This document shows, piece after piece, positions 10,798-18,020 of a stretch of 64,000 bases of DNA. The notes under the pieces are model-generated. The model made no database searches and was not told where the DNA came from. It was given only the letters and a program-made list of their open reading frames with translations. Each line of letters starts with the position of its first letter. Within the stretch, counting starts at the first letter, position 1. The DNA is from Escherichia coli (GTDB lineage: Bacteria; Pseudomonadota; Gammaproteobacteria; Enterobacterales; Enterobacteriaceae): NCBI RefSeq assembly GCF_044324875.1, contig NZ_CP172185.1; one strand, 5' to 3'. The translations under genes and the position numbers were made by a program.

Positions 10798-10873
10798 TGG
10801 TGCTGATAGGCAGATTCGAACTGCCGACCTCACCCTTACCAAGGGTGCGCTCTACCAACTGAGCTATATCAGC
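10798..10873 (-). tRNA. thrT: tRNA-Thr
   Basis: Reverse complement reads GCTGATATAGCTCAGTTGGTAGAGCGCACCCTTGGTAAGGGTGAGGTCGGCAGTTCGAATCTGCCTATCAGCACCA. Confidence 0.95.
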
Positions 10874-10879
10874 ACATCT

Positions 10880-10954
<75 letters not shown>

Positions 10955-11070
10955 ATCCTGGAACTCGGCTACCTGATTTTCATTCTGCACTGAATATCGA
11001 GAGAAGCTCTCTTTATTCGAGCCGGTAAGCGAACTTATCGTCTCGGGCTACGCCATCGCGTGGCCGAAAT

Positions 11071-11155
<85 letters not shown>

Positions 11156-11163
11156 GGACTTGA

Positions 11164-11239
<76 letters not shown>

Positions 11240-13545: not shown

Positions 13546-14570
13546 GAAATCGTCTCCACTGCGCTCACTTCACCTGATGCACCAATAAAGCGGACTTCAG
13601 GCTCAAGCCAGACATTAAATTTTTCACCCACTTTTTGTCTTACATGGTGTGCCAGTTGCACCACATCTTCGCTTTTTGCATTGTCTTCATTAATGAGAAC
13701 TAACGCCTGTTGACGGTGCACCGCAGCCCCACCCATTTGCATCCCTTTTAGCTGGCACTGATCGATAAGCCAACCTGCTGCCAGTTTTACTGAACCATCC
13801 GCCTGGGGATAATTTGGTGCTGTTGGAAATTGTGCCAGTAATGCTTTAGCCGTTTCGGCAGATACAACAGGGTTTTTGAAGAAACTACCGGCATTGCCAT
13901 TCACTTTTGGGTCAGGAAGTTTGGTGGTGCGCATATGACACACCGCATCAAATACTTGCTGTGGCGTTATTGTTGTAGGATCCAGACGAGTTAAGTCACC
14001 ATACGTTAGTACAGGTTGCCACTCTTTTGGCAGACGCAGACCTACGGCTACAATGGCGAAGCGATCCTGGTATTCATGTTTAAAAATACTGTCGCGATAG
14101 CCAAAACGGCACTCTTTGGCAGTTAAGCGCACTTGCTTGCCTGTCGCCAGTTCAACACAATCAACATAAGCGCAAACTCGCTGTAATTCTACGCCATAAG
14201 CACCAATATTCTGGATAGGTGATGAGCCGACACAACCAGGAATTAATGCCAGATTTTCCAGACCAGGCATACCTTCCTGCAAAGTGTATTTTACCAGGCG
14301 ATGCCAGTTTTCTCCGGCTCCTACATGTAAATACCACGCATCAGGTTCATCATGAATTTCGATACCTTTGATCCGGTTGATGATCACCGTACCGCGATAG
14401 TCTTCCAGAAAAAGTACATTACTTCCTTCACCCAGAATAAGAACGGATTGTCCTTTTGCGGTTGCATGCTGCCAGGCATTGAGTAGTTGTTGTTCGTCTT
14501 CGGCACATACAATGTGCTGAGCATTATGATCAATGCCAAATGTGTTCCAGGGTTTTAAGGAGTGGTTCAT
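13542..14570 (-). CDS. murB: UDP-N-acetylenolpyruvoylglucosamine reductase
   Basis: ORF translation [93 protein letters not shown]..., 342 aa; 4-nt overlap with birA. Confidence 0.96.
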
Positions 14571-14662
14571 AGCTGCTTTCCTGATGCAAAAACGAGGCTA
14601 GTTTACCGTATCTGTGGGGGGATGGCTTGTAGTTATGACGACAGGGAGTGTTTGTAGAAACG

Positions 14663-14696
14663 CAAAAAGGCCCAGTCTTCCGACTGGGCCTTTCGC
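14663..14696 (-). terminator. rrnB operon intrinsic terminator (single T1/T2-like hairpin)
   Basis: On - strand right after the 5S gene: CAAATTAAGCGAAAGGCCCAGTCGGAAGACTGGGCCTTTTTGCGTTTCTAC, a stem-loop plus U-run. Confidence 0.8.
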
Positions 14697-14704
14697 TTAA
14701 TTTG

Positions 14705-14824
14705 ATGCCTGGCAGTTCCCTACTCTCGCATGGGGAGACCCCACACTACCATCGGCGCTACGGCGTTTCACTTCTGAGTTCGGCATGGGGTCAGGTGGGA
14801 CCACCGCGCTACGGCCGCCAGGCA
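14705..14824 (-). rRNA. rrfB: 5S ribosomal RNA
   Basis: Reverse complement begins TGCCTGGCGGCCGTAGCGCGGTGGTCCCACCTGACCCCATGCCGAACTCAGAAGTGAAACGCCGTAGCGCCGATGGTAGTGTGGGG... and ends ...GGGAACTGCCAGGCAT; 120 nt. Confidence 0.97.
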
Positions 14825-14922
14825 AATTCTGTTTTATCAACACGTCTCGTTATGACCTGTCGATTTAATCTGTATCAGGCTGAAAATCTTTCTCTCATCC
14901 GCCAAAACATCTTCGGCGTTGT

Positions 14923-17827
<2,905 letters not shown>

Positions 17828-18020
17828 TCACAACCCGAAGATGTTTCTTTCGATTCATCATCGTGTTGCGAAAATTTGAGAGACTCACGAACAACTTTCG
17901 TTGTTCAGTGTTTCAATTTTCAGCTTGATCCAGATTTTTAAAGAGCAAATATCTCAAACAAGACTTAACAGTCTGTTTTGAGATATTGAGGTCGGCGACT
18001 TTCACTCACAAACCAGCAAG

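Follow-up and report, generated by a model that had tools for sequence, protein, structure and literature searches.

In the 64,000-nucleotide stretch of Escherichia coli DNA analysed here (hereafter the window), the rRNA operon rrnB ends in a single intrinsic terminator, and this terminator is the positional counterpart of T2, the second of the two terminators found at rrnB in K-12. The single arrangement, which has no rrB small-RNA gene, is the commoner allele in E. coli; it has been sampled many times over and is an ordinary polymorphism. We consider it probable that this allele is also the ancestral one and that the dual arrangement of K-12 is derived, having gained a paralogous block by gene conversion.

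The rrnB 3' end in the window

The rRNA operon in the window can be identified as rrnB because murB, birA and coaA follow it, together with four more tRNA genes at 10801-11239. The features of its 3' end are collected in Table 1. The mature 5S 3' end (GCCAGGCAT; ...AACTGCCAGGCAT) was read directly from the sequence, and a murB annotation is present at the corresponding region in all matched genomes. No consensus sigma-70 promoter was found in a scan of 14300-15000, and open reading frames called by program in the spacer were dismissed as they overlap rRNA or murB.

Table 1. Features of rrnB and its junction with murB, in window coordinates
Feature	Position	Strand	Basis
16S rRNA gene	19723-18182	minus	Rfam
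tRNA gene inside the rrnB operon	18096-18024	minus	Rfam
23S rRNA gene	17827-14923	minus	Rfam
5S rRNA gene rrfB, last gene of rrnB (final base 14705)	14824-14705	minus	Rfam (14822-14707, 92.8 bits) and sequence reading
AACTGCCAGGCATCAAAT, 5S 3' end plus five bases (18 bp)	14717-14700	minus	
rrfB-murB spacer, 134 nt	14704-14571	minus	sequence reading
Sole intrinsic terminator	14696-14662	minus	fold, and palindrome from terminator scan
rrnB-specific spacer and murB leader	14661-14571	minus	3 differences from the K-12 segment beyond T2
murB (UDP-N-acetylmuramate dehydrogenase), 342-aa ORF	14570-13542	minus	ATG at 14570

Rfam additionally gave a StyR-44 match (124.9 bits; 17835-17943, minus strand), which lies in the internal transcribed spacer and immediately precedes the 23S gene. 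In the 23S-5S spacer (14825-14922, minus strand) a block of about 24 nt, GACAGGTCATAACGAGACGTGTTG, stands in place of the AGAACGCAGAAGCGGTCTG of K-12 rrnB; the same block is found in strain SC418, and a close variant in M45. Most of the E. coli matches listed leave the first 21 bases of the query unaligned.

The terminator begins ten bases past the 5S gene. Its core is a perfect 9-bp stem with seven G-C pairs, made up of the 5' arm GGCCCAGUC (14690-14682), a GGAA loop (14681-14678) and the 3' arm GACUGGGCC (14677-14669), and is extended by an outer stem in which GCGAAA is paired with UUUUGC. A tract of five U residues (14668-14664) and then GCGUUU come next, the sequence after the hairpin being UUUUUGCGUUU; the structure combines the G+C-rich stem-loop of an intrinsic terminator with a U-rich tract immediately 3' of the stem. 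An automated scan flagged the palindrome in plus-strand orientation only, and the minus-strand U tract comes from reading the sequence. The extended hairpin has a folding energy of -26.4 kcal/mol (z = -6.2; none of 200 shuffles was equally stable), as compared with -28.1 kcal/mol for K-12 T1 and -22.7 kcal/mol for K-12 T2, and is about as stable as the former and more stable than the latter. Its structure and position predict that it ends rrnB transcription and insulates murB-birA.

An earlier note on this DNA had described a single terminator in a spacer about half the length of that in K-12. Both observations stand: one hairpin lies in 14571-14704, an interval the note had placed exactly, and the rrfB-murB gap is 134 nt, against 300 nt in K-12 (annotated gap 4171757-4172056). 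Alignment with K-12 established that this strain does not have the same single structure at rrnB. Absent from the window are 166 bp of the K-12 spacer, such that one hairpin is found in place of two hairpins and rrB. The segment present only in K-12 comprises the T1 hairpin and its tail, the tRNA-linked repeat that carries the small-RNA gene rrB, and a second 18-bp 5S 3' end. The two copies of that 18-bp sequence in K-12, whose existence had been pointed out previously, are 168 bp apart, whereas between the 5S gene and murB of the window AACTGCCAGGCATCAAAT is single-copy and the second copy typical of the K-12 dual arrangement is missing.

The flanks of the window hairpin and its distance to murB are what identify it as the counterpart of T2. 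The left flank, CAAATTAAGC, is the same as that of K-12 rrnB T2 (10/10 bases), the distance to murB is the same, the U tract and downstream TTTTTGCGTTTCTACAAAC are identical, and from GGCCTTTTTGCG through the murB ATG there are 3 differences in about 98 nt. The hairpin itself is not that of K-12 T2, where the core reads GGCCAUCC-UGAC-GGAUGGCC: the window hairpin is 2 nt longer and, unlike K-12 T2, which comes after the rrB repeat, it lies directly after the true 5S gene. In this last respect, and in its core, it is like T1 of K-12 rrnB, rrnA and rrnD; the cores are near-identical, that of the window being two positions off rrnB T1 and one off rrnA T1. However, the left flank of T1 is CAAATAAAAC and its tail UUUCGUUUUAUCUG, whereas the window has UUUUUGCG as its tail, with no rrB after it. 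Across the first 48 nt of the window spacer, 40 of 49 alignment columns are shared with K-12 T1, as against 38/48 with K-12 T2 and 45/48 with T2 of strain AF40. The description of a T1-like stem within T2-like flanks was accordingly accurate.

Alleles at the rrfB-murB junction of complete E. coli genomes

We counted the two arrangements directly among 5426 complete E. coli genomes, requiring coverage of at least 80% in each case. The query for the single form was the 83-nt junction of the window (5S end, hairpin and start of the rrnB-specific spacer), and that for the dual form was 182 nt across the rrB tail, T2 and the rrnB-specific spacer. One terminator, with the 5S end directly joined to terminator and spacer, is found in 2863 genomes (53%), and the K-12 dual form, with rrB joined to T2 and the rrnB-specific spacer, in 2521; an AF40 version of the dual query again returned 2521. 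The two counts add up to 5384, near the 5396 genomes that hold the locus. Genomes with the single form include O157:H7, UTI89, O25:H4, NC101, SMS-3-5 and the B-strain derivative B95.deltaA. Even sampling of the ranked matches puts singles that carry the K-12 T2 hairpin at roughly 10% of genomes; the remaining singles, roughly 2300 genomes, carry the window-type hairpin. There is no exact match to the 83-nt junction of the window among the 5426 genomes, the best full-length identity being 97.6%, and the closest relatives (NY1601, AF39, 7/2 and LR-60) all have 134-nt single spacers. A limited literature search found no paper on this strain polymorphism.

That the single spacer might be an assembly artefact, with a repeated 5S end and cassette collapsed into one, deserves mention since many genomes carry the cassette in several copies. 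As spacers of this length, 132-134 nt, occur in all 2863 single-form genomes, which come from many laboratories, and in outgroup species as well, the probability of such an artefact is next to negligible.

The rrB repeat itself is distributed differently from the dual arrangement. A 120-nt core of rrB, taken from K-12, is covered to at least 80% in 3942/5426 complete genomes, and genomes with any match have it at a median of 2 places; 1484 of the 5426 have no such copy, even with sensitive blastn ('distant' mode) included. CFT073 is one of the genomes without the core, matching it over 31 nt only. As a counter of dual terminators this core was misleading and was rejected, because it also follows rrfA and rrfF.

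Several alleles show how the junction can be rearranged. Excision in silico between the 18-bp repeats of K-12 leaves a spacer of 132 nt in which the hairpin is that of K-12 T2, GGCCATCC...GGATGGCC, and precisely this product exists in nature: the spacers of strains NCTC9066 and 2 HS-C are, base for base, K-12 minus 168 bp. B95.deltaA likewise matches K-12 at 100% over T2 and the spacer, and its 5S gene immediately adjoins. The earlier proposal that tandem terminators collapsed by recombination between the duplicated 5S ends is in this sense partly right, in that the mechanism is real, but what it yields from K-12 is a 132-nt allele with the K-12 T2 hairpin and not the allele of the window.

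Other alleles combine the hairpins in different ways. AF40 has the full dual arrangement, 302 nt long, with the window-type hairpin as its T2, and about 17 genomes are of this type. In O103:H2 strain 12009 (300-nt spacer) the T1 position is taken by a left flank and hairpin of window type, CAAATTAAGCAGAAGGCCCAGTCGGAAGACTGGGCC, fused to the T1 tail TTTCGTTTTATC, with rrB and a K-12 T2 hairpin after them; at least 19 genomes, 12009 included, have this mosaic, which may be a trace of the insertion of the cassette. SC418, whose spacer is 134 nt and which is 99.6% identical to the window over murB-coaA, is a genuine chimera: the left half of T1, CAAATAAAACGAAAGGCTCAGTCG, is joined to the right half of T2, GAAGACTGGGCCTTTTTGCG, so that the T1 left flank CAAATAAAAC and GGCTCAGTCG precede a window-type loop and a TTTTTGCG tail. 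Terminator hairpins at rrn ends behave as exchangeable modules, and the O103:H2, AF40 and SC418 mosaics document the exchange.

Two further loci depart from these types. The T2 hairpin of UMNK88 (301-nt spacer) had been guessed from a 95.7% match to be of window type; this was rejected, the hairpin being in fact another GGCCATCC variant, GGCCATCCGTCAGGATGGCC, the third one. Its rrB region differs from that of K-12 mainly at homopolymer runs (GGGGAGC, GGGGCAGG, CCCGGCC), which suggests sequencing errors. In Escherichia sp. MOD1-EC7003 the 421 nt upstream of murB contain a terminator tail of rrnA/rrnG type (GATGGCCTTTTTGCATTGG...), after which come a REP-like sequence and an inserted, apparently coding segment that replaces most of the usual spacer.

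Given SC418, could the window hairpin also be a true chimera of T1 and T2, formed by a crossover inside two similar hairpins with loss of the DNA between them? A MAFFT alignment places its gap inside the hairpin, as would be expected, but four observations make this highly improbable. First, the left flank of the window, CAAATTAAGC, is of T2 type. Second, the window stem has a C where T1 has a T. Third, GCGAAAGG, which adjoins the window stem, is not specific to T1, because it also occurs in K-12 rrnG and in rrnD T2. Fourth, the whole hairpin exists intact at the T2 position elsewhere. The T1-like stem had been taken in the earlier note as the mark of a hybrid, but it is no evidence of a crossover: we observe the same hairpin directly at T2 in AF40 and about 16 other dual genomes, and in Kosakonia oryzendophytica and Citrobacter amalonaticus the only terminator of rrfB has exactly this core.

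Polarity and origin of the two arrangements

Outgroup loci were drawn from a MurB-anchored scan of species-representative genomes, with upstream sequence obtained from many Enterobacteriaceae. Several of the contigs end before the 5S gene, that of E. albertii just before the hairpin, and no locus named as Salmonella or E. fergusonii was among those recovered. Within Escherichia, E. whittamii, Escherichia sp. E1V33 and 'E. coli' E69 each have one terminator after a true 5S gene, and their spacers measure 132-134 nt. More broadly, in 39 of the 42 Enterobacteriaceae loci that could be classified by script, the last terminator comes straight after a true 5S gene. An rrB module adjoins murB in about three of the 42 (Kluyvera genomosp. 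3, Enterobacter sp. CC120223-11 and Citrobacter portucalensis), and two or three further outgroup loci are of uncertain type, possibly dual.

As the majority of E. coli, other Escherichia and 39/42 Enterobacteriaceae loci have a single terminator, the single arrangement is probably ancestral at the rrfB-murB junction, and K-12 appears to be the odd one out, since the single form is both commoner within E. coli and usual in related bacteria. This polarity is drawn from comparative data, namely frequencies and outgroups, rather than from a genome phylogeny, phylogroups having been taken from familiar strain names alone. The direction of change implied by a collapse of tandem terminators is probably the reverse of what took place, with singles outnumbering duals and outgroups mostly single. 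The Escherichia outgroups are split on hairpin type, the window-type family being present in E. albertii and E. whittamii and the GGCCATCC family in E69 and E1V33, so that either hairpin may be ancestral.

An alternative is that the ancestor of the window allele was dual (T1-rrB-T2), with an AF40-like hairpin at T2, and that recombination between the 18-bp repeats deleted 168 bp. The repeats are real and suitably spaced, exact excision products of K-12 occur naturally in NCTC9066 and 2 HS-C, and dual operons of the required AF40 type are known from about 17 genomes. When the same excision is simulated on AF40, the resulting 134-nt spacer departs from that of the window at 4 positions and from those of LR-60 and O157 strain ERL06-2503 at 2 each; with only 4/134 positions from the start of T2 distinguishing AF40 and the window, the deletion route is available. 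Moreover, the presence of duals in a few other genera makes repeated gain and loss likely, and loss in the window's own lineage is therefore possible. Set against this, AF40-type duals are rare (about 17 of the 2521 dual genomes, versus roughly 2300 window-type singles), and the single state is that of other Escherichia species and of most Enterobacteriaceae. UTI89, NC101, SMS-3-5 and O157:H7, which we take to belong to earlier-branching E. coli groups, are all single as well. We consider origin of the window allele by deletion unlikely.

Under the explanation that we favour, an ancestrally single terminator with later gain of the block in the K-12 lineage, the ancestral rrnB end would have run from the 5S gene through one terminator and the rrnB-specific spacer to murB. 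A T1-rrB-T2 block would then have been copied from the end of a paralogous rrn operon by gene conversion, giving rise to the dual form of K-12, and continued exchange among paralogous hairpins may have produced the mosaics in today's population. We infer gene conversion, like the polarity, from several comparisons with which it fits. In K-12, the T1-repeat-T2 cassettes found at rrnA and, after rrfF, at rrnD are near-identical to each other and to that of rrnB, and rrnA has the same block as rrnB through GGATGGCCTTTTTGC. There is a strong association between the dual state and a GGCCATCC hairpin at T2, and the O103:H2 mosaic retains half of a window-type hairpin at T1; both are likewise in keeping with this route.

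The same exchange could in principle have acted on the window itself, its rrnB 3' end having been converted recently from a single-terminator rrn operon in the same genome. In addition to the near-identity of the rrnA, rrnB and rrnD cassettes, K-12 rrnA and rrnG share downstream sequence, mosaic alleles are known from O103:H2, SC418 and AF40, and a GA/AG dinucleotide beside the stem is among the differences that separate the window from NY1601 and AF39, two of its closest relatives. However, the sequence after the U tract, GCGTTTCTACAAAC..., is rrnB-specific, and the single form is common to all close relatives, so that no recent event is needed; the other rrn operons of the source strain, where a donor would have to be sought, lie outside the window. 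A recent conversion is in our view very unlikely.

Implications and relation to known rrn operon ends

The 'rrnB T1T2' of textbooks and cloning vectors is, on these counts, a feature of the K-12 lineage, and a probably derived one, that fewer than half of complete E. coli genomes carry at rrnB. The genes rrA, rrB and rrF encode small RNAs and are situated, in rrnA, rrnB and rrnD, between T1 and T2; their RNAs, which arise by read-through of T1, bind Hfq and CsrA in vitro; deletion has modest phenotypes only, and the termination efficiencies quoted for K-12 are 87% for T1 and 100% for T2 (Stenum 2021, PMC8144298). The RrB gene, described as conserved, is absent from rrnB in 53% of complete genomes, and the RrA/B/F family is absent altogether in about 27%, which qualifies the published description 'well conserved' and fits the weak deletion phenotypes reported in K-12. 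Elsewhere murB has been named as an insertion between rrnB and tufB, in an account that does not discuss the terminators (PMC6735719).

Copies of RrA/B/F range from none, in that 27%, to three or more in K-12-like strains. We nevertheless think it quite improbable that this copy number and the presence or absence of T1-rrB form a lineage-structured regulatory polymorphism that affects phenotype; if they did, it might be through an altered dosage of small RNA towards CsrA and Hfq, or through a change in read-through from rrnB into murB-birA. The elements involved (rrn terminators and the tRNA-linked repeat of rrB) are already known, and the polymorphism carries little wider biological weight.

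Among the other rrn operons of K-12, rrnE, rrnC and rrnH have different ends, and a parallel in layout to the window is rrnG, where the 5S gene is again followed by a single hairpin of the T2 family with the left motif GCGAAAGG. The rrnG hairpin is however of the GGCCATCC kind, and the sequence downstream of it, which it has in common with rrnA, is another one (TTTTTGCATTGG...). No Rfam family corresponds to rrB, the K-12, AF40 and Kluyvera loci having given only 5S and 23S matches (E <= 0.01). In comparison with rrB as described for K-12 (PMC8144298), the window has the 18-bp 5S-end sequence that is its hallmark, though only once, whereas rrB itself is absent from the window's rrnB; it is this presence or absence of rrB that explains the difference in spacer length.
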